Shown here piece after piece: positions 4,225-59,866 of a DNA stretch of 64,000 bases (positions within the stretch are counted from its first letter, which is position 1; each line of letters begins with the position of its first letter). The position numbers were made by a program, and so were the translations under genes. The stretch is taken from assembly GCA_963514005.1 (NCBI GenBank), contig OY740807.1:11222001-11286000 (forward strand). The letters run 5' to 3'. Under the pieces are notes generated by a model that worked only from the letters and a program-made list of their open reading frames with translations, had not been told where the DNA came from and made no database searches. This stretch comes from Raja brachyura (Eukaryota).

Positions 4225-4313
4225 ACGTGCAGTGGTGATTGTTGAATTGAAAGTTGTTAGAACAGCCGACCAAGTGAATGGAAAAATCGGTAATCCAACG
4301 CCAATCAATGAAG
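4225..4313 (+). CDS. RPA1: RPA1 coding exon (human exon 5 equivalent), 89 nt, with a GC splice donor
   Basis: Acceptor ttttttcccgttctag. Peptide RAVVIVELKVVRTADQVNGKIGNPTPINEG resembles human [30 protein letters not shown]. Donor AG|GCAAGT; phase 1 fits the next exon. Confidence 0.9.
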
Positions 4314-10023: not shown

Positions 10024-13000
10024 TGTAAGATATTACGACTTCAGCATGTAGATAGAAACAAGCACAGGTTTTCAGTACACGCTGTGTAGGTCGTCTTTAT
10101 GTTGCAAAAGCACACTGCGCATGCTCACACATATTCACGAGACTGGTAAGATATAGAATATATCACATGACACATCATATCATTCCAGTACTGAGTTCTT
10201 AAAGTTACAATTACCATTATATACACTACACTGCTCTCTCCTTAGAAAGCAAAATAACTTGTAAATTAGACAAACAAGAATAATTTTATAAATTTAATCG
10301 GACGACTGGTTTACGCACTCTTTCTGATCTGAGTGGTTTAGGGGTAGTATCAGGTTGTGGTTCCAAACGAGAGTCAAGTCCAGGATCATTTACCTTTGTC
10401 TCTACTTTCTTTGGAGATTCTGCTCTTACATCTGAACTTGGAATAACACCAAAGTCTGACAGATCTGCTTCTTTGTCTATGCTTTGCTCTTGTCCCGGTT
10501 CATCCCTGGATGGGATCATATGGTTTATGTGCACACTTCCAACACGTCCTCCAATTTCTACCAAATTCCTCCTGGGACGACACACTTCAACTACTGTTCC
10601 CGCCTCCCATTTGTTTGCTTTGTAAGGGGGGGCTAGGTACACTGACCTGATCATGTGTATTAAACCGACGTTCTTTTTGACTTCCACCATAATGACATTT
10701 CTGATCAGATTGTTTGGGTTCAACCTTTGGAAATAGGTTCGGTAGAACCAAACTCAGTCTAGTTCTGGGCCTTCTTTTCATGAGAAGTACAGCTGGCGTA
10801 TATTGTGGCGTGGCAGATTGTGGCGTGGTACGATATTTCAGTAAGAAACTAGCTGCTGTGACATACTGAATTTAGAATTCCCTTCAAGAACATGTTTATT
10901 GAGAGCTCCTTTGATTATCCTGACTGACCTATCGGCTGTGCCGTTAGATGCCGGATGGTAAGTTAGCACTAAGGTATGCTTCATATAATTTAGCTTCATG
11001 AACGTTTGGAACAATGCAGCATGAAATTGGGGGCCGTTGTCAGAGACAAGCTCTTCAGGTAATACATGACACGCAAATATAGACCGCAATACGTCTATTG
11101 TTCTTTCTGTTGTTGTGTCTGTATCCATATGTAACCACCTCAATCCACTTTGAGTGGCTATCTACCAAAATGAGAAAATTATTATTCCCGTGTTCACAAA
11201 AGTGAACTCTCTGAAAAGGTCTGGTAGGCCAAGACCCTGTTTGCAAAGGGGTTTGGGCAGGCCTACTTCTACAACTCTGACAGATACTACATTTACTTGC
11301 CATTGCTTCTATGTCATTGTCCAATCCTGGCCAATACATGCAACCTCTGGTTGTAGACTTCATTCCAACAATACCTGTGTGTTCACTATGGAGCTCTTTA
11401 AATAATATTTGTCTTCTCTGTGACCCCATTTAATACACCCTTGCACACATGACAGTTCATATTGTCTAGTGTGATAAGGTTTTAGTTCATTAGTACATGG
11501 TTTTATTTCTGGCCAGCCACACAAAATGTGTTCATATGCTTGTTTTAGCACTGTGTCCTTGAGTTTCAGCAAAAAATTTCAGCTGCTGTGACTGGAAAGT
11601 CATTGTCCACTGCTTCTGTGACGTAGACAGCACCTTCACAGCCCGCATCTGATTCTTCATGAGGCAAACGTGACAATGCATCAGCGATAGCATTTTCATT
11701 TTGAGCTGCGGTACTCAATACTGTAGTAATTACAGTGACAGGAGAACTGCGCAGCGCTGCATCCTCGAGGCTGCAATCGTAGGTATTGGTGACCGACGAC
11801 CAAGAATAGCGAGAAGTGGCTTCTGATCAGTAACCGGGGGGAATACCCTACCCAACAGATACTGATGGAATTACTTGATCACAAAGATGATACCAAGGTC
11901 TTCTTTCTCGATTTGTGCACAATTACGCTCACTCTTCGTAAGTGTGTGCGATGCAAATGCTGTAGGTTTTTCTTGCCCCTGTTCCATTACATGTGAAATC
12001 ACATCTCCTACCCCACAACTAGACGCCTCACAAGCTAACTTCAACTCGCGATTTGTATCGTAGTGAACAAGTAATGCATCACTGGTCAAGCTCTTCTTGC
12101 ATGCATCTTACAAATTTTGTTGTTCTTTGGACCATTCCCAATGTTTATCCTGTTCAACAACTTGTGAAGAGGAGCTAGCTTTGTTGCTCATGCGGGTAAG
12201 AAGCGTGAGTAATAGTGTACCATACCCAGGAAGGAGCGGAGTTGAGACACATTCTGTGGTGTTGGTGCGTTTGCAATAGCTTCACTTTCAAACCAAGATA
12301 CACTACTTCAGTCTGTAAGAATGCAAATTTGTTTCTTTTCAACTTTATATTGTGATCATCAAGCCGTTTCAACACTTCACTGAATGCCTCTAGATTCTCC
12401 TCCTCAGTAACAGTCGCAATCAGCAAGCTCAAACAATGTGATGTTTCTTGCAGAATCTTGTCCATTGTAGCTTGGATGATTTTTGGTGCTGACATCACAC
12501 CATAGGGTAGTTTTGTGTTGGAATAGAGCCTCGTGTGTGTTTGTTGTGAGGTACTCCTGTCTCTTAAGATCAACATTTAGCTGAGCATATGCACGTGACA
12601 GATCTAGCTTGGAGAATACCTCGGAACCAGCAAGTTCAGCATATAAATCTTGTGAGGTTGGTCATGGATACTGTTCATCATCCACTGCCTAGTTGACGGT
12701 CACTCTGTAGTCTCCACACAATCTCACTATGTTCGCTTTTTAACCATCACTATTGGAGTAGCCCAATCACTGCGATCTGTTTTAACCATTACACTGATTT
12801 GTTCCAACTTTTTGATTTCAGCTTCCACTTAACTTTTCAACGCTTATGGCTCTGGTTGCGGTGTACAGTAGACAGGTTCCACATCGGGTCGAGTCCTGAT
12901 GTGTGTTTGCTCACCCTTTATGCCATCATAGCTGCCGTTGAACGCAGCATGCTGTTTCTGCAACAACTGATCCAGTTGTGTTTGCACTTCGACTTGGAAC

Positions 13001-14149
13001 ACAGATTTCCAGTCCACTTTCAGTAAACTGAGCCAATTTTTGCCCATCAACCTTGGCCTATTGACATAACTGCAGCAGCTATTGGTAACTTCAAAATCTT
13101 GCTTTGTGTTGTACATCACAAACTATCTGTCCACGTCTCTCCAATACTTCTCCAGAGCATGTTTTCAGCTGAACGTTTGTTTCTGTGATGGGCATGGTGC
13201 TAAACCTGGATTTATAGGTGTCTTTGCATATAATTGTGCAATCAGCAGCGGTGTCAGTACACATAATAACGTATTGTTTGACCTTTGTCTGAAAGTCTTC
13301 CTTTCCATACTCGCTGTTCGTAGTTTAGTACAGTCCAAGTTCATTACTCACTGACTGTTCTTCGAGGTTGTGAATCCCACGCATTTGGTTTAATCAAGCC
13401 TTTTATTTAGCTTTGTCCTGTGATGGTGCTCCACAATATGACCTTTCTTTTGACAGTTGTAGCACTTAGAGTCCTTGAACTGGCACTTATTTGCTTTGTG
13501 TTGACCATTGCATCGATAGCACATATCTGCGCTTTTCCCTGAACTTTGCTGTGAAGGCCTTTTCCCTGTCTTGTCATGCTTGTGTTTTGGAACTGCCTTT
13601 TGACTGTTGACCGTGCCAGCATGTGTTGGTCGAAACTCATGTGCACTTTGACATGCCATCTCCATGCCCAAAGCAGGTTTGCATGCCAAATCAAAGGTAA
13701 GGGCTGGTGTGTTCAGTAATTTTGATTGGATTCGCACATCCAGCGTTCCACTTATAAATCTATCACGCAAAGCTCGATGCAGAAATGTTGCAAAATTGCA
13801 GTGTAGAGCCAACTTCTTCAATGAGATAATGTACTCACCCACAGTCTCACCAGACTTCTGTTTTTTTGTGTGACATTTGTAACTTTCTGCAATCTCTATG
13901 GCCTTAGGGTTGAAGTGAGCATCAAGTTTTGAGAGAACAGCCCCAAATAAAACATTCCTTGCGTTCTCTTGGGCCAGGTGAGAGTTTTATAAACTTAAGG
14001 ACCAATTTCAGTTCATGGAATGGCAGTCTTTCGTTCCTGGATGCCCTTGTTTTGTGCTCTTATCTGCACTTGATCAGCATCCTCAAATATAAGATATTAC
14101 GGCTTCAGCATGTAGATAGAAACAAACACAGGTTTACAGTACATGCTGT
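10024..14149 (-). mobile_element. Decayed Gypsy/Ty3 LTR retrotransposon
   Basis: Domain order gag (CYRCNGQHKANKC knuckle, 13390-13842), RT, RNase H (LKLACEASSCGVG), integrase (LVSDNGPQF, YHPASNG). The 3' LTR at 10024-10230 has TG...CA ends and an adjacent polypurine tract at 10231-10243; a partial 5' LTR lies at 14088-14149. Many stops and frameshifts. Confidence 0.92.
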
Positions 14150-18696: not shown

Positions 18697-20349
18697 CAGT
18701 GCCCTCCATAATGTTTGGGACAAAGACCCATCATTTATTTAGTTGTCTCTGTTCTCCACAATTTGAGAATTGTTACAGAAAAAAATCACATGGTTAAAGT
18801 GCCCATTGTCAGATTTTATTTAAGGGTATTTTTAAACATTTTGGTTTCACCATGTAGAAATTACAGCAGTATTTATACATAGTCCCCCCATTTCAGGTCA
18901 CTATAATGTAAATTAAGGTAGCCATTTTGTTTAGTATTCTGTTGCATATCCTTTGCATGCAATGACTGCTTGAAGTCTGCGATTCATGGACATCACCAGT
19001 GGCTGGGTGTCTGCTCTGGTGATGCTCTGCCAGGCCTGTATTGCAGCCATCTTTAGCTTATGCTTGTTTTGGGGGCTAGTCCCCTTCAGTTTTCTCTCCA
19101 GCATATAATAGCAATGCTCAATTGGGTTCAGATCGGGCGATTGACTTGGCCACTCAAGAATTGACCATTTTTTTTTAAGCTTTGAAAAACTCCTTTGTTG
19201 CTTTAGCAGGGTGTTTGGGATCATTGTCTTGCTGTAGGATGAACCGCTGGCCAATGAGTTTTGAGGCATTTGTTTGAACTTGAGCAGATAGGATGTGTCT
19301 ATACACTTCAGAATTCATTTTGCTACTACCATCAGCAGTTGTTTCATCAATGAAGATAAGTGAGCCAGTACCTTCAGCAGCCATACATGCCCAGGCCATA
19401 ACACCCCCACCACTGTGTTTCACAGATGAGGTGGTATGCTTTGGTCCTTGGGCAGTTCCTTCTCTCCTCCATACTTTCCTCTTGCCATCACTCTGATATA
19501 AATTAATCTTTGTCTCATCTGTCCACAAGATCTTTTTCGAGAACTGTGTTTGCTCAAACTGAAACCCGGTCATCCTATTTTTACGGCTAACCAGTGGTTT
19601 GCATCTTGCAGTGTGACCTCTATATTTTTGTTCATGCAGTCTTCTGCGGACAATGGTCATTGACAAATCCATACCTGACTCCTGAAGAGTGTTTCCGATC
19701 TGTTGGACAGGTGTTTGGGGCTTTTTCTTTATTATGGAGAGAATTCTTCTGTCATCAGCTGTGGAGGTCTTTCTTGGCCTGCCAGTCCCTTTTGTGATTA
19801 GTAAGCTCACCAGTACTCTCTTTCTTCTTAATGATGTTCCAAACAGTTGATTTTGGTAAGCCTAAGGTTTGGCTGATGTCTCTAACAGTTTTATTCCTGT
19901 GTCTCAGTCTCATAATGCCTTCTTTGACTTTCATTGGCACAACTTTGGTCCTCGTGTTGATAAACAGCAATAGAAGTTTCCAACGGCGATGGAAAGACTG
20001 GAGGAAAGACTAGGTGCTGTGAGCTCTCTTGTACCTGCATTAAGGAGGCAATTAAACACACCTGAGCAATTGCAAATATCTGTGAAGCCATGTGTCCCAA
20101 ACATTATGGTACCCTGAGATTGGGGGGGGGGGGGGGGGGGGGGGGGAGGGAGAGTGATACTATGTATAAACACAGCTGTAATTTCTACATGGTGAAACCA
20201 AGATGTATAAAAATGGCGTTAAGTAAAAATCTGACAATGTGCACTTTAACCACATGTGATTTTGTTTCTATTACAAAGCTCAAATTGTGGAGTACAGAAG
20301 CAAATAAATAAATGATGGGTCTTTGTCCCAAACATTATGGAGGGCACTG
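18697..20349 (-). mobile_element. Tc1 (DD34E) transposon copy 2, near full length with frameshifts
   Basis: TA-flanked, with the same TIRs as copy 1. ORFs 19755-19970, 19175-19810 and 18931-19269 cover the HTH region, GRPRK hook and DDE domain. Inserted into a PLE-derived palindromic repeat. Confidence 0.95.
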
Positions 20350-36312: not shown

Positions 36313-37256
36313 ATAGACAATAGGTGCAGGAGTAGGTCATTTGGCCCATTGAGCCAGCACCGCCATTCAATGTGATCATGGCTGATCATCCCCAATCAGT
36401 ACCCCATTCCTGCCTTCTCCCCATATCCCCTGACTCTGCTATTTTTAGGAGCCCTATCTAGCACTCTCTTGAAAGCATCCAGAGAACCTGCCTCCACCGC
36501 CCTCTGAGGCAGAGAATTCCACAGACTCACCACTCTCTGTGAGGAAAAGTGTTTCCTCGTCTCCGTTCTAAATGGCTTACTCCTTATTTTTAAACTGTGG
36601 CCCCTGGTTCTGGACTTCACCAACATCGGGAGCATGTTTCCTGCCTCTAGTGTGTCCAAGCCCTTAACAATCTTGTATGTTTCAATGAGATCCCCTCTCA
36701 TCCTTCTAAACTCCAGAGTGTACATGCCCAGTTGCTCCATTCTCTCAGCATATGACTGTCCCGCCATCCTGGGAATTAACCTTGTAACCCTACGCTGCAC
36801 TCCCTCAATAGCAAGAATGTCCTTCCTCAAATTAGGGGACCAAAACTGCACAAAATACTCTAGGTGTGGTCTCACTAGGGCTCTGTACAACTGCAGAAAG
36901 ACCTCTTTGCTCCTATATTCGATTCCTCTTGTTATAAAGGCCAACATGTCATTCGCTTTCTTCACTGCCTGCTGTACCTGCAGGCTTACTTTCATAGACT
37001 GGTGTACAAGGTCCCATTGTACTTCCCCTTTTCCCAACTTGACACCATTTAGATAGTAATCTGCCTTCCTGTTTTTGCTACCAAAGTGGATAACCTCACA
37101 TTTATCCACATTAAACTTCATCTGCCATGCATCTGCCCACTCCCCCAACCTGTCCGACAAGTCACCCTGCATTCTCATAGCATCCTCCTCACAGTTCACA
37201 CTGCCACCCAGCTTTGTGTCATCTGCAAATTTGCTAATGTTACTTTGAATCCCTTC
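36313..37256 (-). mobile_element. CR1 LINE 3' fragment nested in the Tigger-like element
   Basis: ORF 36396-37199 is the CR1 ORF2 C-terminus ([28 protein letters not shown]). Confidence 0.92.
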
Positions 37257-39813
37257 GATCTTTGACAGCGCTAGTCCAGCAACCGTTGGAAAAAATTAAT
37301 GTTTTTGCAATGACGATCTTTGAGATTAAATTATCCCGAAAATGAATGTTTCTCTAAAAATGAGAAGTAAACTTCTCTCGCTGCTGCTAGAGTAGTGCTC
37401 TCAAAGTGACAAGAAAGCTGTGCTCACTTGATCACTACGATGTGCTGATGAAAAGGAATACTGTGTGCGTAGAAACGCACCTCGAATACATATTGCTAAC
37501 CAAAATGTTAGCAGAAGTGCTCAACATCAAGATCGTGCTGCTTCCCAAGAAAAGAAACGGACATGGCATAGCAGAAGAGAGAGAATGTTTGGTAGGTTAG
37601 GTGTATTAAATGCATTTTCGACTGACAATATTTTCGATTTACGATGGGTTTATTGGAACGTAACCCCATCGTAAATTGAGGAGCACCTGTAGTCCCCCCC
37701 ATTTCAGGACACCATAATCTTTGGGACACATGGCTTCACAGATGTTTGTAATTGCTTAGGTGTGTTTAATTCCCTCCTTAATGCAGGTATAAGAGAGCTC
37801 TCGGCACTTAGTCTTTCCTCCAGTCTTTCCATCGCCTCTGGAAACTTTTATTACTATTTATCAACATGAGGACCAAAGTTGTGCCAATGAAAGTCAAAGA
37901 AGGCATTATGAGTCTTAGAAACAAGAATAAAACTGCTAGACACAGCTAATTTAGGCTTACCAAAATCAACTGTTTGGAACATCATTAAGAAGAAAGAGAG
38001 CACTGGTGAGCTTACTAATCGAAAAGGGACTGGCAGACCAAGGAAGACCTCCACAGCTGATGATAGAAGAATTATCTCTGTAATAATAAAGAAAAATCCC
38101 CAAACACCTGTCCGACAGATCAGAAACACTCTTCAGGAGTCGGGTGTGGATTTGTCAATGACCATTGTCCGTAGAAGACTTCATGAATGAAAATACAGAG
38201 CAAGATGCAAACCACCGGTTAGCCGCAAAAATAGGATGGCCATGTTACAGTTTGCCAAGAAGTACTTAAAAGAGCAACCACAGTTCTGGAAAAAGATCTT
38301 GTGGACAGATGAGACAAAGATTAACTTATGTCAGAGTGATGGCAAGAGCAAAGTATGGAGGAGAGAAGGAACTGCCCAAGATCCAAAGTATACCACCTCA
38401 TCTGTGAAACACGGTGGTGGGGGTGTTATAGCCTGGGCATGTATAGCTGCTGAAGGTACTGGCTCACTTATCTTCATTGATGAAACAACTGCTGATGGTA
38501 GCAGCAAAATGAATTCTGAAGTGTAAAGACACATCCTTTCCGCTCAAGTGCAAACAAATGCCTCAAAACTAATTGGCCGGTGGTTCATTCTACAACAGGG
38601 CAATGATCCCAAACATACTGCTAAAGCAACAAAGGAGTTTTTCAAAGCAAAAAAATGGTCAATTCTTGAATGGCCAAGAATCACCCAATCTGAACCCAAT
38701 TGAGCATGTCTTTTATATGCTGAAGAGAAAACTGAAGGGGACTAGCCCCCAAAACAAGCATAAGCTAAATATGGCTGCAATACAGGCCTGGCAGAGCAAC
38801 ACCAGAGAAGACACCCAGCAACTGGTGATGTCCGTGAATCACAGACTTCAAGCGGTCATTGCATGCAAAGGATATGCAACAATATACCAATCATGACTCC
38901 TTTCATTTACATGACATTGTTGTGTCCCAAATCTTATGGTGCCCTGAAATGGGGGGGACATATGTATAAACACTGCTGTAATTTCTACATGGTGAAACCA
39001 AAATGTACAAAAATGGCCTTTATTAAAATCTGACAATATGCACTGTAACCACATGTGATTTTTTTTTTTTAATTACAAATCTCATTGTGGAGTACAGAGG
39101 CAAATAAATAAATGATAGGTCTTTGTCCCAAACATTATGGAGGGCACTGTAAATGTTTTTAAATGTTAGGAGTTTGGGAATTTTCTGCATTCATGGGAAC
39201 GTGGATTGTGGAGCTGTGGTGTTGGTCGAGTGAGCATTTCGGAAAGCAGGAAACATGTTTACGAGGAAAAAAGATTGAAAAATGAGTAAAGATTGTCATG
39301 TTGGGCTTGCTACACCAGAAATGTGTGCAGAATTCAGCATTCACTTATAGCAAGGATAAAATGCAGCTGTGGGTTCACCAATGTGTTAACATGAATTGGG
39401 ATTGCAGTTGAAAGAATTTTTCCATTGAGCTGTGGAGTGCCTATAAAGTGGTGTACATCGATAGATCGTTTCATTAATCAATGAATCCCCACTTTAAGGT
39501 TACTGGTGACCTCTGTTTGGAAGGAGTTAGGGAAATGTTTTCTGAAAAAGTTCTCCGCATAGATGCGTGCATGAAACTTTCTCCACAAATTCTGCGAGTC
39601 AATTTTATCCCATATCTCAAATTTTCAACTCATGGTTTGTGAATTGTCTAAGGGCAAATGTCTGTTACCCAAAGCCCATAACGTACTGGTTGCTTGAACT
39701 GAAGGTTTAGGGAAAAGGGGCAGTAATTAGTACTTTGAATTTTTTTCCGCAAATTAAAGTACCAACATTTTCTTCCCCGAGTGTATTGCATAATTACTCA
39801 AGAAATAAGAGTA

Positions 39814-43824: not shown

Positions 43825-43954
43825 GTTTGATACTGAGGGCCGGGTGATGGAAGGGACATCTATTTCTGATGTAAAGGGTGGTTCTATGGGAGGAAACGCA
43901 AACTGGAAAGTGATGCTTGAAGTTAAAAATGAAAATTTGGGTCATGGAGATAAG
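43825..43954 (+). CDS. RPA1: RPA1 coding exon (exon 13 equivalent), 130 nt
   Basis: [43 protein letters not shown] with canonical sites; ends in phase 0. Confidence 0.96.
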
Positions 43955-46063: not shown

Positions 46064-47193
46064 AAAATGGGAGGACTGTTTGTTAATGTAGCATGTTATA
46101 CTTTGCATCTGGCTCTCATCAACATTTGGCACTCACTCTCCCAGCTAATGCACTTTGAGGTTTATAGAATGCAAAATGAAGGTTATATACGTTTATTTGG
46201 TAGTCTTTACTGCCCTTCCCACCCATTTCCATTAAACTTTATACAACACACCTTTTTCTTCAAACAATTTAAAAAAATGTTATCCAGCTCTCCTACAGAT
46301 AATATTCTAAAATAATTAGGCATAGACGAGAGTCTGTCACCCGAATGGTTACATGGTTAGGCTGCATTGTACACCATAGACAACTTGGCTCTGCACAAAA
46401 GTACGAAGCAATTGCCTTTTGAGAGGCTTATTCAAATATATTTATAGAGGCAGTAAAAGGCTGAAACAATTCATTTGTTTAGGTACTGTTTTTCTTCCAG
46501 TTAAACTCTTATTTAGAGCATTAAAGTTTCAGTTTCCAAGGGATAAGTGGCAAATGTAGATATCTCCAGTGAATCAGTGGGAAAAGGTAATATAGTGTTT
46601 TTTATTGAAGCCTACTAAATTGCAGACTGACAACTTTATTTGTTTCTCTGCTATAATTGTAGACATTGGCATTAATAATGAATGAAGTTGATACAAATGC
46701 AGGCTAAGTGATGGGGCTGCTAGAAGTAGTTTTATTAACAAGAAATCCATGTAGGTGTAATGTTATTGCTTTTTTTTTATGCTGTGCACCCCTACCTCGG
46801 AAATGTTCATTTAGATTGGTTTACTTCAAGGAAGACATTAATTATAGTTGTGCTTTTCGTGGAGGATAACACATTTTATTTCAAATCATGCACAGGGCTG
46901 CCAACTCTCACGCCTGGAGTGTGAGAATCATGCATTTCGCCAAATTCTCACGCTCTCACACTGATCACAAATTTCTCATGCTCTGTCGTGAGAAATTCTT
47001 TGATCAACGTAAATTTCAGAACTTATATCATCTGCATGGACCGCGGGTGTTGGAGAGCCGGGGCTGAGGGAGGGATGGATGGAAGCAGAAGCAGCAGCGG
47101 GGATGGATGCAGACAGGGAGCCGGGGCTGGCCAGTGTTTGCTGGGCTGGCGAGTGTTTGCCAGGCTGGTGAGTCGCTCACGGCAGCTCTGGCC

Positions 47194-47349
47194 ATGGAGC
47201 AGCCTCAGTGCAAGAGTCCTCGGCCGTCTGAGGCATCGGAAGCGTTGCGCTGCTGCCATGAGAGTCTCTGTGCCGAATTTGCCCAAGTGACTGGTATGGA
47301 CCAGGCTGCAGCTCGGTGCATCCTGGAGGACAACCAGTGGCTGCTGGAA
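47194..47349 (+). pseudogene. TDP2: Captured TDP2-like exon 1 (UBA-like N-terminus) with start codon and splice donor
   Basis: GCCATGG start. Peptide ...ESLCAEFAQVTGMDQAAARCILEDNQWLLE resembles the recalled TDP2 segment LLCVEFASVASCDAAVAQCFLAENDWEME and is followed directly by GTAAGT. No other TDP2 exon is seen in the window. Confidence 0.7.
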
Positions 47350-47463
47350 GTAAGTACCAATCACTAGATAGAAACGGTGGAAGATAATGGCCTTCCAATG
47401 GGGGTCGTTGGAGAAAGAATCCTGCTTGCCTGCTAGATTTTCACTTACTGTAACTGCATGAAA

Positions 47464-47770
47464 AATGATCCCGATGTTCAGAACCAGGGGGTCACAGTTT
47501 AACAATAAAGGGTAGGCAGTTAGGACTGAGATGAGGACAAATTTTCTTCACGCAGAGTTGTGGAATTCTCTGCCTCAGAAGGCAGTGAAGGCCAATTCAC
47601 TGGATGTTTTCAAGAGAGTTATATTTAGCTCTTGGGGCTCGTGAAATCAAGAAATATGGGGGAAAATCAGGAAAGGTACTGATTTTAGATGAACAGCCAT
47701 GATCATATTGAATGGCAGTGCAGGCTCGGGCCGAATGGCCTATTCCTGCACCTATTTTCTATGTTTCTAT
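47464..47770 (+). mobile_element. CR1 3' end fragment
   Basis: CR1 3' UTR and TTTCTATG tail. Confidence 0.8.
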
Positions 47771-49803
47771 GCTTGAGTATATGGCAATAAAACTCGACCA
47801 CTTGATTTTGAAGCATTCATGCATGATGGAGGTATAATGTAGTCATAGAGTGATACAGTGTGACAACAGGCCCTTGCAGCGCAACTTGCTCACACCCGCC
47901 AACTGCCCACCCTGTCCTATCCATGTATCAGTCTAACTATTGCTTAAATGTTGGGATAGTCCCTGCCTCAACTACCTCATCTGGCAGCTTGTTCCATACA
48001 CCCACCACCCTTTGTGTGGAAAAAGTTACCTCTTAAAAATACTTCAAACAAAAACCATTGAAATTATACTTCTACAATGCATTAAAACATGATTTTAATA
48101 CTTCAAATTTCAAAACGTTCATACCATTGGAGGGGTAACACCCCCCTCCCACAACCTCCCCCCACACGGTTGCTGCACTCTCTCGCAGGGTACCCCCAAA
48201 ACCAGTGATCAGTGATCGCTTAGCCACCCCACTGAAAACGCTCAGTGGCCCCAGGTGCAGACAGAGACCACTGCCAGATGTAAGCGGGGAACTGAGGCCA
48301 GTCGTCCATGATGTCTGGATCCCAATGCTCAGCGCTTTGTGTTTCGGAGTTTGCTAATGTTATTGATTTGTAATTAGTTGACAAAACCTTAATTTATTAT
48401 TCCGGAATATCCAGGGGGATGGGATAAGTGGAATATTGAAATGACATGCAAGGTGTTAGGCTGTCTGTCACAACATACAGCCTCGATAACCCATTATTTC
48501 CTACAGTTAAATGTTGGGAAGGTAGCACTTGTCATTTGCCACTCAACTATTATGTTTGTTTACCTTACTGACTGTTTCTAACCCCCACCTCCCCAAATTC
48601 CTTTGACAGGTTGTATAGAAATGTCCACAATCTCATTGTTTTATTAATTGAACATGTAGATGAACATCCTTAAGGAGTGTAATCAGATGGAAACTGATTC
48701 AGATGCGATGTTTAAGAGCTTGTTCAAAGAAGGGGCATATTTTAATGGAGTGACAAAGATACTTGCAGTGGAATGTGTGAGGAGGTTATTATTTGTCTTT
48801 AGTTTTGGCTTGAACCAGGACATCTGAAGATTCAAAGTTTAATAAAGTAATTGTGCTGATACTGACTCCAACCAACCATGTAATGAATATCATCCATTCC
48901 GGAGGATTTATTTTTCTGATGTCATTCAAACTTCACTTGGATTTCAATCACTTCAATGTAAAAGTAGTTGGGAATGGGGAGCATTGGAACAAAAATTTGC
49001 CCTTGGTACATATTAACTGTAATATAATAATGTATGCATGTTGGTAGGTGCAATCAAAACACAGACCTTTTTTATCATTGTTGTGTTATGAATACCACAG
49101 AAAATATTATGTTCTCTGAAGATCACATTTAAGTGAATAACATTGTGTAAATATATAGTTATTGGACTGCATTTTGGAAAAGTCCCAGCTGAGAGGAAGA
49201 CAGCAAATTGCTGAAAATATTGGGGGTGAAAATGACTTCAGGACAGTTTGTTAGGAAAATGAAGTAAATGGTGACAGAATACTTATACAGCTGAGTGAGT
49301 ATAATTTTATGGATGAGAAATTGTGTTCAACCAATTGATGACTTCTTTGATAAAGTAACTAGCATGTTAGATAACAAGGGAGCCAATGGATGTAGCAAAT
49401 TTTGTTATACAAAATGTGGTCTGTGAAGAGCCCCATAAAAGATTACCGCATTAGATAAGCACCTGTGGACTTGAACGTAATAGGTTTATGTATGAGCCAG
49501 ATATATTTTGAGTGCAGAGAGGCTAGGAGCAAGGCCAAGTGTGCATCCAGAGTCAAGGTCTGGAATAGTACTAGGTGTGCAGTCAAAGCTGGGACCAGGG
49601 GTGTGTTCAGCACTGGGAACCTAAGCATGTAAGCAGCTATGATCAGGGTAGAATAGGGGGCCAGGTGTAAGGCTGTACTCATTGTCAAGAATGAGAGAAG
49701 GTATGCGACTGGAGTCGGGGTCAGGAGTAGTACCAGGTGTGCAGTGAGACCCAGGGTGGGCCAAGTGTGTGATTATAATTTGATTTCCATACATGAATAT
49801 ACT

Positions 49804-51925
49804 AACATAGAAACGTAGAAATTAGGTGCAGGAGTAGGCCATTCAGCCCTTCGAGCCTGCACCGCCATTCAATATGATCATGGCTGATCATCCAACTCAG
49901 TATCCCGTACCTGCCTTCTCTCCATACCCTCTGATCCCCTTAGCCACAAGGGCCACATCTAACTCCCTCTTAAATATAGCCAATGAACTGGCCTCAACTA
50001 CCCTCTGTGGCAGAGAGTTCCAGAGACCCACCACTCTCTGTGTGAAAAAAGTCCTTCTCATCTCAGTCCTAAAGGATTTCCCCCTTATCCTTAAGCTGTG
50101 ACCCCTTGTCCTGGACCTCCCCAACATCGGGAACAATCTACCTACATCTAGCCTGTCCAACCCCTTAAGAATCTTGTAAGTTTCTATAAGATCCCCTCTC
50201 AATCTCCTAAATTCTAGAGAGTATAAACCGAGTCTATGCAGTCTTTGTTCATAAGACAGTCCTGACATCCCAGGAATCAGTCTGGTGAACCTTCGCTGCA
50301 CTCCCTCTATGGCAATAATGTCCTTCCTCAGATTTGGAGACCAGAACTGTACGCAATACTCCAGGTGTGGCCTCACCAAGACCCTATACAACTGAAGTAG
50401 AACCTCCCTGCTCCTATACTCAAATCCTTTTGCTATGAAAGCTAACAGACCATTCGCTTTCTTCACTGCCTGCTGTACCTGCATGCCTACTTTCAATGAC
50501 TGGTGTACCATGACACCCAGGTCGCGCTGCATCTCCCCTTTTCCTAATCAGCCTCCATTTAGATAACAGTCTGTTTTCCTATTTTTGCCACCAAAGTGGA
50601 TAACCTCACATTTATCCACATTATACTGCATCTGCCAAACATTTGCCCACTCACCCAGCCTATCCAAGTCACCTTGAAGTCTCCTAGCATCCTCCTCACA
50701 GCTAACACTGCCCCCCAGCTTAGTGTCATCCGCAAACTTGGAGATATTGTCTTCAATTCCCTCATCCAGATCATTAATGTATATTGTAAATAGCTGGGGT
50801 CCCAGCACTGAGCCTTGCGGTACCCCACTAGTCACTGCCTGCCATTGTGAAATCGACCCGTTTACTCCTACTCTTTGCTTCCTGTTTGCCAGCCAGTTCT
50901 CTATCCACATCAATACTGAACCCCCAATGCCGTATGCTTTACGTTTATATACTAATCTCTTATGTGGGACTTTGTCGAAAGCCTTCTGGAAGTCCAGATA
51001 CACCACATCCACTGGTTCTCCCCCATCCACGCTACTAGTTACATTCTCGAAAAATTCCACAAGATTCGTCAGACATGATTTACCTTTCGTAAATCCATGC
51101 TGACTTTGTCCAATGATTTCACCACTTTCCAAATGTGCTGCTATCCCATCTTTAATAACTGACTCTAGCAGTTTCCCCACTACCGATGTTAGACTAACTG
51201 GTCTGTAATTCCCCGTTTTCTCTCTTCCCCCCCCCTTCTTAAAAGGAGGGGTTACGTTTGCTACCCGCCAATCCTCGGGAACTACTCCAGAATCTAAAGA
51301 TTTTGAAAGATTATCACTAATGCATCCACTATTTCCGGAGCTACTTCCTTAAGTACTCTGGGATGCAGCCTATCTGGCCCTGGGGATTTATCGGCCTTTA
51401 ATCCATTCAATTTACCCAACACCACTTCCCGACTAACCTGGATTTCACTCAAGTACTCCTTTGACCCTGCTATTTCCGGCAGATTATTTATGTCTTCCTT
51501 AGTGAAGACTGAACCAAAGTAGTTATTCAATTGGTCCGCCATATCCTTGTTCCCCATGATCAACTCCCCTGTTTCTGACTGCAAGGGACCTACATTTGTT
51601 TTAACTAATCTATTTCTCTTCACATATCTATAAAAACGTTTGCAGTCAGTTTTTATGTTCCCTGCCAGTTTTCTTTCATAATCTATTTTTCCCTTCCTAA
51701 TCAAGCCCTTTGTCCTTCTCTGCTGGTCTCTGAATTTCTCCCAGTCCTCTGGTATGCTGCTTTTTCTGGCTACTTTGTACGCATCATCCTTTGCTTTGAT
51801 ACTATCCCTGATTTCCCTTGTTATCCACGGACGCACTACCTTCCCTGATCTATCCTTTTGCCAAATTGGGATGAACAATTTTTGTAGTTCATCCGTGCAG
51901 TCTTTAAATGTCTTCCATTGCGTAT
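49804..51925 (-). mobile_element. Young 5'-truncated CR1 LINE, about 2.1 kb
   Basis: ORFs 51294-51878, 50548-51180 and 49897-50532 give [35 protein letters not shown] and FADDTK, with few lesions. Confidence 0.95.
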
Positions 51926-52562
51926 TCTAAGATCATTCATGTGCTGCACCCGTTGATCAGAGCCTGGCTCTACTGTGGAATGTAATTAGGAATGTAATTT
52001 AGCCTAATCTTATTCATAGCTAAACCAATTTAAAGCATGCATATTGCATTCAAGTGTAAGTTAAAAGACTCGCTACAGTATGCACCAAATTGCACAATTT
52101 CAAGCTGAAAAATGCGAAAGTTCCGTACCAATGGGAGGGGACACACCCCCCCCTCCCCCTCCGGTCACTATGCTCCCTCGGGCTTGGTCTCTTACAATTT
52201 CTCACTCCCAACTCTCACCCAACGTTGGCAGCCCTGCCATGCAGCACACCTTGAAACTGATTCACGGACAATAACTGCACGAGGCAATTGCCTTTATTCA
52301 CCTCAGTTGCCCTTGAGAAAGTGGAAATGAGGTGGAAGGAAAGGCCCTGGGAATCAGTCCACCGAGCACATATATTGCTGCTCAAAAGGCCAGAGTTAGA
52401 ATCCAGTGCAGATGATTCAGTGTGTCCTGTTGAGCACAACTTGTATTAGCTTCTAATTTAACCATTTGCACTCTGATAGTCAGTCCTTTGGAAGTTTAAT
52501 AATTCAATCCGATGTTATGACGTGAGAATTGGCACCCAAGCATTTTGTAATGTGACTATTTC

Positions 52563-52845
52563 TCGGTAGCACTGTGGCACAGCTGGCAGAGTTGCTGTCT
52601 CGGCGCCAGAGACCTGGGTTCGATCCTGATCTCAGGTTCTTGATGTTTGTAGTTCGCTCACTTTCCCTTTGACCGCGTGGCTTTCCTCTGTGTGCTCTGG
52701 TTTCCTCCCACATACCAAAGACACGCGGGTTTATAGGTTAATTGGCCTCCGTAAATTTTTCCTAGTGTTTGGGGAGTGGAGGCAAAAATGGGATAACATA
52801 GAACTGGCGTGGACTCGATGGGCAAAAAGATATTTTCCATGTTTT
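52563..52845 (+). mobile_element. V-SINE / HE1-like SINE
   Basis: GGTTCGATCC B-box and the V core GGTTTCCTCCCACA. Confidence 0.7.
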
Positions 52846-52909
52846 ATTATTCAATCATCAATTGGTCATTTATTCTCTCATAATCACTCAAATGGTATAT
52901 CTTCTACAG

Positions 52910-53086
52910 CCTGATTATTACACAACTGTAGGTACCATTGTGTACCTAAGGAAGGAAAACTGCATGTACCAGGCTTGCCCGACTGCAGATTGCAATAAAA
53001 AGGTTGTGGATCAACAGAATGGCCTTTACAGGTGTGAGAAGTGTGATCGTGAGTTCCCCAACTTCAAATATCGAATGATCTTGTCG
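52910..53086 (+). CDS. RPA1: RPA1 coding exon (exon 14 equivalent, DBD-C zinc ribbon), 177 nt
   Basis: [59 protein letters not shown], with all four zinc-binding cysteines; phase 0 at both ends. Confidence 0.98.
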
Positions 53087-57302: not shown

Positions 57303-58304
57303 GTAAGTGTCTTAATCTAGAGTAGGTTTTAAATAATATTGATTTTATTTTCGATAAGATGCACTATTGGCAGGGTAGTCTGTAATGAAAAATTAGCAGT
57401 AAAGGAGTCCTGTAATGCTAACGTCTGATGATTTAACTTCCCAGTTGAGTTTATAAACATTGTAAGACAAGACATGCAGAGATGATTGTGACACTGTATC
57501 GATTGGAATCAACTTAACAATAATTCATTAATTTTGTGCATCTGTTTCCAGGATGGAAATGTGGAAGACTAGAGGGTATAGCTTTCGGGGGGGGGGGGGG
57601 TGGTTTAAAGGTGTACGGGGTAAGTTTTGTCTTATAGAGAGTGGTGAGTGCCTGGAATATGCTGCCATGGGTGTTGGTGGACTTGGATATGTTAGTGGCA
57701 TTTGGGTAGGTGCTTGGATATGGAAGGATTAGAATTATGCGCAGGCAGATGAGATTAGCTTAGCTTGGCATCATGTTCGGTACAGAGATTGTGGGTCAAA
57801 GAGCCTGTTCTAGGTTACATTTCTGCTTAATACCCCTAGTTCCACCGTTGGATATCATGGAGAGAGTGCATGCTCAACTCGACTCCATTGATTGTTCCTT
57901 TAAAGTCTAACACATAACAATTTCCCAAATTATTTGATCATCCCATTGCTAAGATCTTCTACAAGCCCTCTAAACCAAACTAGGTCTGTTCAATATTGTA
58001 ATTTTTACATTAATTCCCACTCACCAACAGCCAGTCTTTTTATCCCAGTTCTTATGTACTTCTGATTTTGTTGAAGATTACTCTGCAGGGTCACTCCATC
58101 ACTCATGTCTGATATCCTTTCACTTTTAACAAATAACTATTGGGGAAGTAAATGGAGACTGTGTTATTACTCAAGCCTGTTCCTCTATTCAAGTGTGAGT
58201 AGATTGATTGTCCATCTCACGTCCATTCTTCTGCCTTGTTGCGTTTAGAAATGCAGCATGACCCTTCCATGAGTCCACGACAAACCATCGATCACCCGTT
58301 CACA

Positions 58305-59866
58305 CTGGAGTAGTTCTGGAGTAGTTCCTGAGGATTGGCGGGTAGCAAACGTAACCCCTCTTTTTAAGAAGGGAGGGAGAGAGAAAACGGGGAATTACAG
58401 ACCAGTTAGTCTAACATCGGTAGTGGGGATACTGCTGGAATTCGTTTTTAAAGATGGGATAGCAGCACATTTGGAAAGTGGTGAAATCATTGGACAAAGT
58501 CAGCATGGATTTACGAAAGGCAAATCATGTCTGACGAATCTTGTGGAATTTTTCGAGGATGTAACTAGTAGCGTGGATAAGGGAGAACCTGTGGATGTGG
58601 TGTATCTGGACTTCCAGAAGGCTTTCGACGAGGTCCCACATAAGAGATTAGTATACAAACTTAAAGCATACGGCATTGGGGGTTCAGTATTGATGTGAAT
58701 AGAGAACTGGCTGGCAAACAGGAAGCAAAGAGTAGGAGTAAACGGGTCCTTTTCACAATGGCAGGCAGTGACTAGTGGGGTACCGCAAGGCTCAGTGCTG
58801 GGACCCCAGCTATTTACAATATACATTAATGATCTGGATGAGGGAATTGAAGGCAATATCTCCAAGTTTGTGGATGACACTAAGCTGGGGGGCAGTGTTA
58901 GCTGTGAGGGGGATGCTAGGAGACTGCAAGGTGACTTGGATAGGCTGGGTGAGTGGGCAAATGTTTGGCAGATGCAGTATAATGTGGATAAATGTGAGGT
59001 TATTCACTTTGGTGGCAAAAACAGGAAAGCAGACTATTATCTAAATGGTGGCCGATTAGGAAACGGGGAGATGCAGCGCGACCTGGGTGTCATGGTACAC
59101 CAGTCATTGAAAGTAGGCATGCAGGTGCAGCAGGCAGTGAAGAAAGCGAATGGTATGTTAGCTTTCATAGCAAAAGGATTTGAGTATAGGAGCTGGGAGG
59201 TTCTACTTCAGTTGTATTGGGTCTTGGTGAGACTACACCTGGAGTATTGCGTACAGTTCTGGTCTCCAAATCTGAGGAAGGACATTCTTGCCATAGAGGG
59301 AGTGCAGAGAAGGTTCACCAGACTGATTCCTGGGATGTCAGGACTGTCTTATGAAGAAAGACTGGATAGACTCGGTTTATACTCTCTAGAATTTAGGAGA
59401 TTGAGAGGGGATCTTATAGAAACTTACAAAATTCTTAAGGGGTTGGACAGGCTAGATGCAGGAAGATTGTTCCCGATGTTGGGGAGTTCCAGGACAAGGG
59501 GTCACAGCTTAAGGATAAGGGGGAAATCCTTTAGGACCGAGATGAGAAGGACTTTTTTCACACAGAGAGTGGTGGGTCTCAGGAACTCTCTGCCACAGAG
59601 GGTAGTTGAGGCCAGTTCATTGGCTATATTTAAGAGGGAGTTAGATGTGGCCCTTGTGGCTAAGGGGATTAGAGGGTATGGAGAGAAGGCAGGTACAGGA
59701 TACTGAGTTGGATGATCAGCCATGATCATATTGAATGGCGGTGCAGGCTCGAAGGGCCGAATGGCCTACTCCTGCACCTATTTTCTATGTTTCTATGTTT
59801 TCCCTTTAACCTTCTACATGCAAGAAAGAATTCTAAAATATAAAAAGCAGCAAATGTTTCTATGTT
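58305..59866 (+). mobile_element. Young 5'-truncated CR1 LINE, about 1.5 kb, inserted into a SINE
   Basis: ORFs 58423-58698 and 58768-59706 are near-identical to the minus copy at 49804-51925. The host SINE halves lie at about 58243-58304 and 59866-60112. Confidence 0.95.

Follow-up and report, generated by a model that had tools for sequence, protein, structure and literature searches.

Why an intron of RPA1 in Raja brachyura should hold what looks like the first coding exon of another gene, TDP2, in frame with the next RPA1 exon, and whether that exon is used, are the questions raised by this locus. We analyzed a window of 64,000 nucleotides (NCBI GenBank assembly GCA_963514005.1, contig OY740807.1, positions 11,222,001 to 11,286,000), in which the original prediction, made from the letters alone, had placed a terminal inverted repeat (TIR) element at 46893-52236. 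Here, positions without a prefix are those of the window. We consider it likely that this element is one copy of a high-copy non-autonomous DNA transposon carrying TDP2 upstream sequence, coding exon 1, and the start of intron 1. Genomic DNA was the likely template from which a founder element acquired the TDP2 sequence, and the transposase that moved the family likely came from another source. As for the copy in RPA1 intron 13, it is likely silent and removed by splicing together with the intron.

The signals originally described are present in the sequence. Perfect 13-bp TIRs bound the element, and a GC-rich block (47000-47399, GC 0.55-0.60) contains a Kozak ATG at 47194 (context GCCATGG), followed by 52 open codons and a phase-0 donor, GAA/GTAAGT, at 47349/47350. 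The 52-residue peptide had been read as the UBA-like N-terminus of TDP2, and this was borne out: it matched Pfam UBA_4 above the cut-off (E = 5e-6, model positions 2-30 of 43, the remainder of the domain lying in TDP2 exon 2), its sole PDB match was the TDP2 UBA domain (6q00), and it was 81% identical to Leucoraja TDP2 over all 52 residues. The parent gene lies at G000:C2:140267905-140287554. Window positions 47042-48032 aligned to it, with 729 of 821 positions identical, from 116 bp 5' of the ATG through exon 1 to approximately 630 bp into intron 1, with both nested repeats of the captured intron in the parent's order, supporting the proposal of DNA-level capture with the intron rather than retrocopying. 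These repeats are a 3' fragment of a long interspersed nuclear element (LINE; ~47455-47770), which we take to be CR1-like, and a fragment that presumably resembles a short interspersed nuclear element (SINE; ~47840-48030). The element's ends are absent from the parent locus. Exon-end contigs in runs X1 and X4 continue into TDP2 exon 2, which confirms the exon boundary and its phase. A 24-bp in-frame deletion relative to the parent was found in captured exon 1 in all 16 copies displayed. The capture of TDP2 exon 1 into a TIR element is confirmed.

The flanks TCATGCA and CCATGCA form a 7-bp target duplication with one mismatch, and the parts of the element are listed in the table below. A single composite element including 48250-49800 had been proposed, and this held: the segment 48033-49808 is present in family copies, so the unit is one composite element. 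Its first part, 48033-48254, we read as a TIR end by resemblance. The source of 48255-49808 was absent from 244 kb around TDP2 (G000:C2:140146001-140390000), and a genome search with this middle segment returned only family copies among the best 40 of 1,343 scored. The core element is approximately 3.3 kb, and the window copy is longer because an antisense LINE, presumably CR1-like, was inserted at 49809-51922; the LINE-free joint 49801-51927 was found in four of four runs. The internal acceptor-like sites that were tested, including one at 48610 in frame with the exon, gave short frames. The later LINE insertion had been overlooked by the original prediction, as had the fact that the element is one of about 2,000 copies.

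Table. Features of the TDP2-carrying element and the flanking RPA1 exons, in window coordinates.
Feature	Position	Strand	Remarks
Host RPA1 exon 13	43825..43954	+	Phase-0 donor
Left target-site duplication, 7 bp	46886..46892	.	1 mismatch to right copy, 52237-52243
Left TIR, 13 bp	46893..46905	+	Opens family copies; 1,171 exact 21-mer left ends in genome
Element's own left end, with repeated TCTCACGC subterminal motifs	46893..47038	+	Absent from TDP2 locus
Captured TDP2 sequence 5' of start codon	47039..47193	+	Parent starts 116 bp before ATG, G000:C2:140267789
Captured TDP2 coding exon 1, 52 codons, N-terminal two thirds of UBA-like domain	47194..47349	+	
Phase-0 donor GTAAGT	47350..47355	+	GTAGGT in parent and older subfamily; use of parent donor seen in spliced contigs
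Captured 5' part of TDP2 intron 1, with LINE 3' fragment and SINE-like fragment	47350..48032	+	Parent's order
Internal piece resembling right end of another TIR element	48033..48254	+	Subterminal motif in common with element's own right end
Second cargo, non-coding, degenerate LINE remnants, fixed in TDP2-cargo family	48255..49808	+	Present in family copies
Later antisense LINE insertion	49809..51922	-	Absent from family copies
Element's right end, including right TIR 52224-52236	51923..52236	+	
Host RPA1 exon 14, start of DBD-C domain	52910..53086	+	Phase-0 acceptor

We investigated the abundance of the element in the host genome. Its first 548 bp gave 3,558 candidates, and all 39 of the 39 other scored matches were 83-88% identical. 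Searches with the exon peptide, the right end, and the middle gave 1,697, 2,306, and 1,343 candidates, respectively. An exact 22-mer across the exon end occurred 717 times, the parent included (control, 0). Since this 22-mer was intact in only 20 of 54 aligned copies, or 10 of 33 copies picked by their ends, we estimate approximately 1,900-2,400 copies. The element is a member of a large non-autonomous family with no fewer than 716 copies and likely about 2,000, and this TDP2-cargo family was present in runs from four organisms. Of 63 loci examined for target duplications, 39 gave both ends and 24 gave no pair. Duplications of at least 6 bp with at most one mismatch flanked 25 of the 39 paired copies, compared with 0.9% of shuffled pairs; their lengths were 6 bp (nine copies), 7 bp (11), 8 bp (four), and 9 bp (one). 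The window insertion itself was also detected in X6, without a difference over 841 bases, and in X8, with 7 differences and 3 gaps.

Some copies are nested composites with inner left ends. One composite subfamily (L048, L110, and L136) has a GA-rich tract before the inner left TIR; L048, which also has a truncated right end, lies 43 kb upstream of TDP2 (G000:C2:140220364-140225277). Copies with internal deletions, among them L055 and L036, are flanked by duplications of their own and therefore moved or persisted without the exon. We rejected L055 (376 bp) as a pre-capture ancestor: it retains the first bases of the cargo and is hence a deletion derivative. In addition, two sister families, B (1,657 candidates; L169-L198) and C (2,555 candidates; L239-L268, L150, and L226), share the TIR and differ in the interior, having only the first 60-90 bp and the right end in common with the TDP2-cargo family. 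Where resolved, their right end and 6-7 bp duplications are shared with it. Their different GC-rich interiors contain inner left ends and may carry other captured host pieces. An end of family C is located 36 kb upstream of TDP2, and an abundant long terminal repeat (LTR)-like repeat, with copies 94-98% identical, is inserted in a family B end (L158:5140-5400).

Decay was analyzed in 55 copies, which were the best-scoring matches and hence biased towards intact ones, with divergence measured from the column majority. Divergence was 4.6% outside CpG and 16.4% at CpG sites, and the ratio of nonsynonymous to synonymous polymorphism (pN/pS) was 0.68-0.77; the family decays near-neutrally. The ATG, frame, and GT were all kept in 27 of the 55 copies. 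The donor was GTAAGT in 32 and the parental GTAGGT in 13, and most of the latter cluster with the parent in a weakly supported tree; GTAGGT marks an older subfamily and GTAAGT the larger one. The window copy kept 13 of 29 CpGs, where the parent has 23 and family copies average 18.7, and is more CpG-decayed than the average copy, in agreement with the earlier suggestion of a methylated, decaying copy. The codons cited in support of that suggestion fared unevenly: TGC and CAT are decayed CGC and CGT, whereas the start ATG and the internal ATG are both parental and not decayed ACG.

The transposase of the family was sought among three groups of loci. No hAT transposase lay between the same TIRs in the 20 of 150 PF05699 loci or the 20 of 115 PF14291 loci sampled. 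The P superfamily was rejected: among the 20 of 29 PF21787 loci sampled, those P elements that could be resolved end in different termini and are flanked by duplications of 8 bp. Where the TIR occurs in P-type loci, it is a short nested fragment inside P copies (L143, L149, L156, and L158) or belongs to separate sister-family insertions (L150 and L158). In sister families B and C, the first 1.6-1.8 kb from the left ends contained no frame resembling a transposase, the frames being judged by eye without a family scan. The TIR starts with CAGGG, which we take to be hAT-like, and the duplication length falls within the hAT range, as in non-autonomous hAT elements. However, hAT elements usually make 8-bp duplications, with 5, 6, and 7 bp in the hAT5, hAT6, and hAT7 groups, respectively, so that in the part of Kojima (2025, PMC12730594) cited here each group has one length, whereas this single family gives 6, 7, and 8 bp (one copy, 9 bp) and has no linked transposase among the loci sampled. 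True hAT copies in the same genome gave 8 bp in five of five resolved cases. With a single length per hAT group and 6-8 bp here, placement of the family in hAT is not established, and a duplication length that varies in this way points to a transposase yet to be classified. Two other groups of elements were met at these loci. A THAP-bearing P-element family with 8-bp duplications (L143:3463-8173, L149, L156, and L158) contains a short TIR fragment and a GA tract, and hAT elements of ~3.0-4.5 kb (L083, L084, L088, L089, and L093) have exact 8-bp duplications and, in some cases, frames near 700-790 codons, and are possibly recent.

For the origin of the family, we favor a sequence of events in which a founder element may have copied the TDP2 5' region from genomic DNA by template switching or gap repair, as in models outlined by Tan et al. 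(2021, PMC8277862). A second template switch would have brought in 48033-49808, and a hAT-like partner enzyme may have mobilized the family in trans. One copy would then have landed in RPA1 intron 13 in sense orientation, with the LINE inserting into it later, and this copy is probably methylated in the germline and removed with the intron. A variant that we regard as unlikely is that the cargo itself aids spread, for example through CpG-rich open chromatin or transcription, and was selected at the level of the element. All 30 left-end loci run past the capture junction, most far into the cargo, and in the larger subfamily GTAAGT has replaced GTAGGT as the donor; higher copy numbers were also found for bat Helitrons that contain 5' parts of genes, according to the part of Thomas et al. 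(2014, PMC4224331) relied on here. Conversely, both sister families are also abundant with the same TIR and other interiors, and the deleted copies with their own duplications spread or lasted without the exon.

Alternatively, the template may have been a 5' piece of unspliced TDP2 pre-mRNA, captured through RNA-templated repair or reverse transcription. The cargo lies in sense and begins at the gene's 5' end, at a junction so close to the ATG that it may be near the transcription start. We judge this route quite improbable: the intron and both nested repeats are retained, no exon 1-2 joint or poly(A) is seen, and at the 3' junction the sequence switches to a further TIR-end-like piece, with a short duplication at that place. 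A processed retrocopy is rejected on the same absence of a joint and poly(A) and on the retained donor and ~630 bp of intron 1.

According to the original prediction, a transcript starting in the cargo could splice into RPA1 exons 14-17. The window copy would then be an alternative first exon, and the protein would have 52 + 158 amino acids, with a partial UBA and the DBD-C domain. The next RPA1 acceptor (52910) is indeed phase 0 and on the same strand. RPA1 is the host gene, exon 52910-53086 being 100% identical to Leucoraja and Mobula RPA1; together with the Leucoraja TDP2 match, this points to a skate or near batoid as the likely source of the DNA. The sense orientation, Kozak ATG, open frame, perfect donor, and matching phase favor such a chimera, as does the window copy's freedom from non-CpG amino-acid changes; moreover, ~30% or more of profiled Pack-TIRs are transcribed as chimeras in the part of Tan et al. 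(2021, PMC8277862) concerned. The fusion itself did not appear: no 47349-52910 joint was found among the 15 of 315 joints listed, which come from assembled contigs, so that absence is not proof. The normal exon 13-14 joint was present in four of four presumed RNA runs at a depth of 92-412, run depth being taken neither as copy number nor as expression. In a narrower comparison, the sole spliced continuation at 47349 was TDP2 exon 2, in X1 and X4, among the 24 of 342 loose ends listed. The exact same donor context occurs in at least 468 copies, and 6 of the 12 mapped RPA1 acceptors are phase 0; the features that suggested a chimera are therefore unremarkable, being common to hundreds of copies or due to chance. 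The protein collection contained no annotated fusion, with two matches among seven longer candidates (TDP2 and a read-through frame) and one near-length fragment, which is weak evidence. With strong CpG loss, a captured 5' flank so short that the TDP2 upstream promoter was likely left behind, and the third helix of the UBA domain missing with exon 2, we consider the chimera very unlikely.

Several observations weigh against the account of a mobile family whose RPA1 copy is silent. Fourteen of the 39 paired copies lack a clear duplication; in four of them, an inner TIR or ends that were wrongly paired were noted. An empty insertion site did not come to light, X6 and X8 being filled and X1 and X4 not spanning the junction. 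Screening 60 transposase loci for the TIR yielded no autonomous partner. The RNA evidence has little depth, as it covers assembled contigs from which rare forms are dropped, the RNA status of the runs is guessed (X4 and X5 are probably DNA), and the tissues are unspecified. The window copy has no non-CpG amino-acid change, as in only 3 of the 55 copies, and three changes in all (three or fewer in 10 of 55), and pN/pS is below 1 in this sample of best-scoring matches. The few changes in the window copy lean towards constraint, weakly, given how the copies were picked.

Other features of RPA1 in the window were also recorded. Exon numbers 13-17, which we take over from human RPA1, agree with the exon count. 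A GC donor (AG/GCAAGT, 4313/4314) appears to close RPA1 exon 4225-4313, and its phase fits the next exon. The RPA1 introns contain what we take to be Tc1/mariner-like transposase remnants (2139-2908, 18934-19861, and 38191-38523), and a broken LTR-retrotransposon-like stretch on the minus strand (10289-13986) presumably represents gag/pol remnants. Young-looking CR1-like LINE pieces with long reverse-transcriptase frames are located at 36399-37295, 49809-51922, and 58273-59703. Separately, a naked mole-rat RPA1 record (P0032) has a UBA_4 N-terminus unlike that of TDP2; it looks like a gene-prediction fusion and is unrelated to the element.

The element has the tested core features of a Pack-TIR, namely TIRs at both ends, copy-specific target duplications, and a parental locus without element ends, and its copy number is far outside the range given by Tan et al. 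(2021, PMC8277862). In plants, Pack-MULEs serially capture 5' pieces of genes inside TIR elements, giving composite cargo as here. They differ in having long TIRs and 9-10 bp duplications, as stated in part of Tan et al. (2021, PMC8277862), compared with the 13-bp TIRs of this element. The same source, as far as cited here, counts 370 Pack-TIRs in 100 genomes, only four of them multicopy (a frog example has three copies), with a median cargo of 224 bp. The TDP2-cargo family resembles these animal Pack-TIRs in having a host gene piece between TIR ends, dispersed copies with distinct duplications, and a parent far from most copies (PMC8277862), and differs in its copy number and in a TDP2 cargo of ~1 kb with a coding first exon and donor. 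The method described there starts from known consensus elements (PMC8277862) and, in our view, may miss cargo that belongs to the consensus. We found no published description of the TDP2-cargo family in the literature, and a search for its TIR motif listed unrelated papers; Repbase and Dfam lay outside that search, and a library name may exist. Helitrons are rolling-circle elements and are not known to have TIRs or target duplications. One of these, bat HelibatN3, nevertheless offers the nearest parallel in effect: according to the part of Thomas et al. (2014, PMC4224331) consulted, it amplified the NUBPL 5' region to about a thousand copies and also carried the promoter. The element studied here differs in its 13-bp TIRs and its duplications of 6-8 bp.

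In the cited part of Tan et al. (PMC8277862), most animal Pack-TIRs are single-copy; here, a cut-and-paste element amplified a coding first exon approximately 2,000-fold in a vertebrate, a scale for which we found a comparable description only for bat Helitrons, in the portion of Thomas et al. cited (PMC4224331). In these fish, the family could be a source of error in TDP2 annotation, in read mapping, and in small-RNA work. About half of the sampled copies still have the start, frame, and donor, so that the rates at which a shuffled first exon is put to use or eliminated can be tested directly in this family. A bolder reading, which we hold to be doubtful, treats the family as a mobile first-exon cassette that consists of an ATG, a UBA-like N-terminus, and a phase-0 donor made stronger, and that about half of the ~2,000 copies preserve intact. 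An undescribed transposase cutting with a stagger that varies between 6 and 8 bp would have moved it, and chimeric mRNAs would begin in some intronic copies, possibly the one in RPA1. If true, this would make the lineage a natural genome-wide experiment in exon shuffling.

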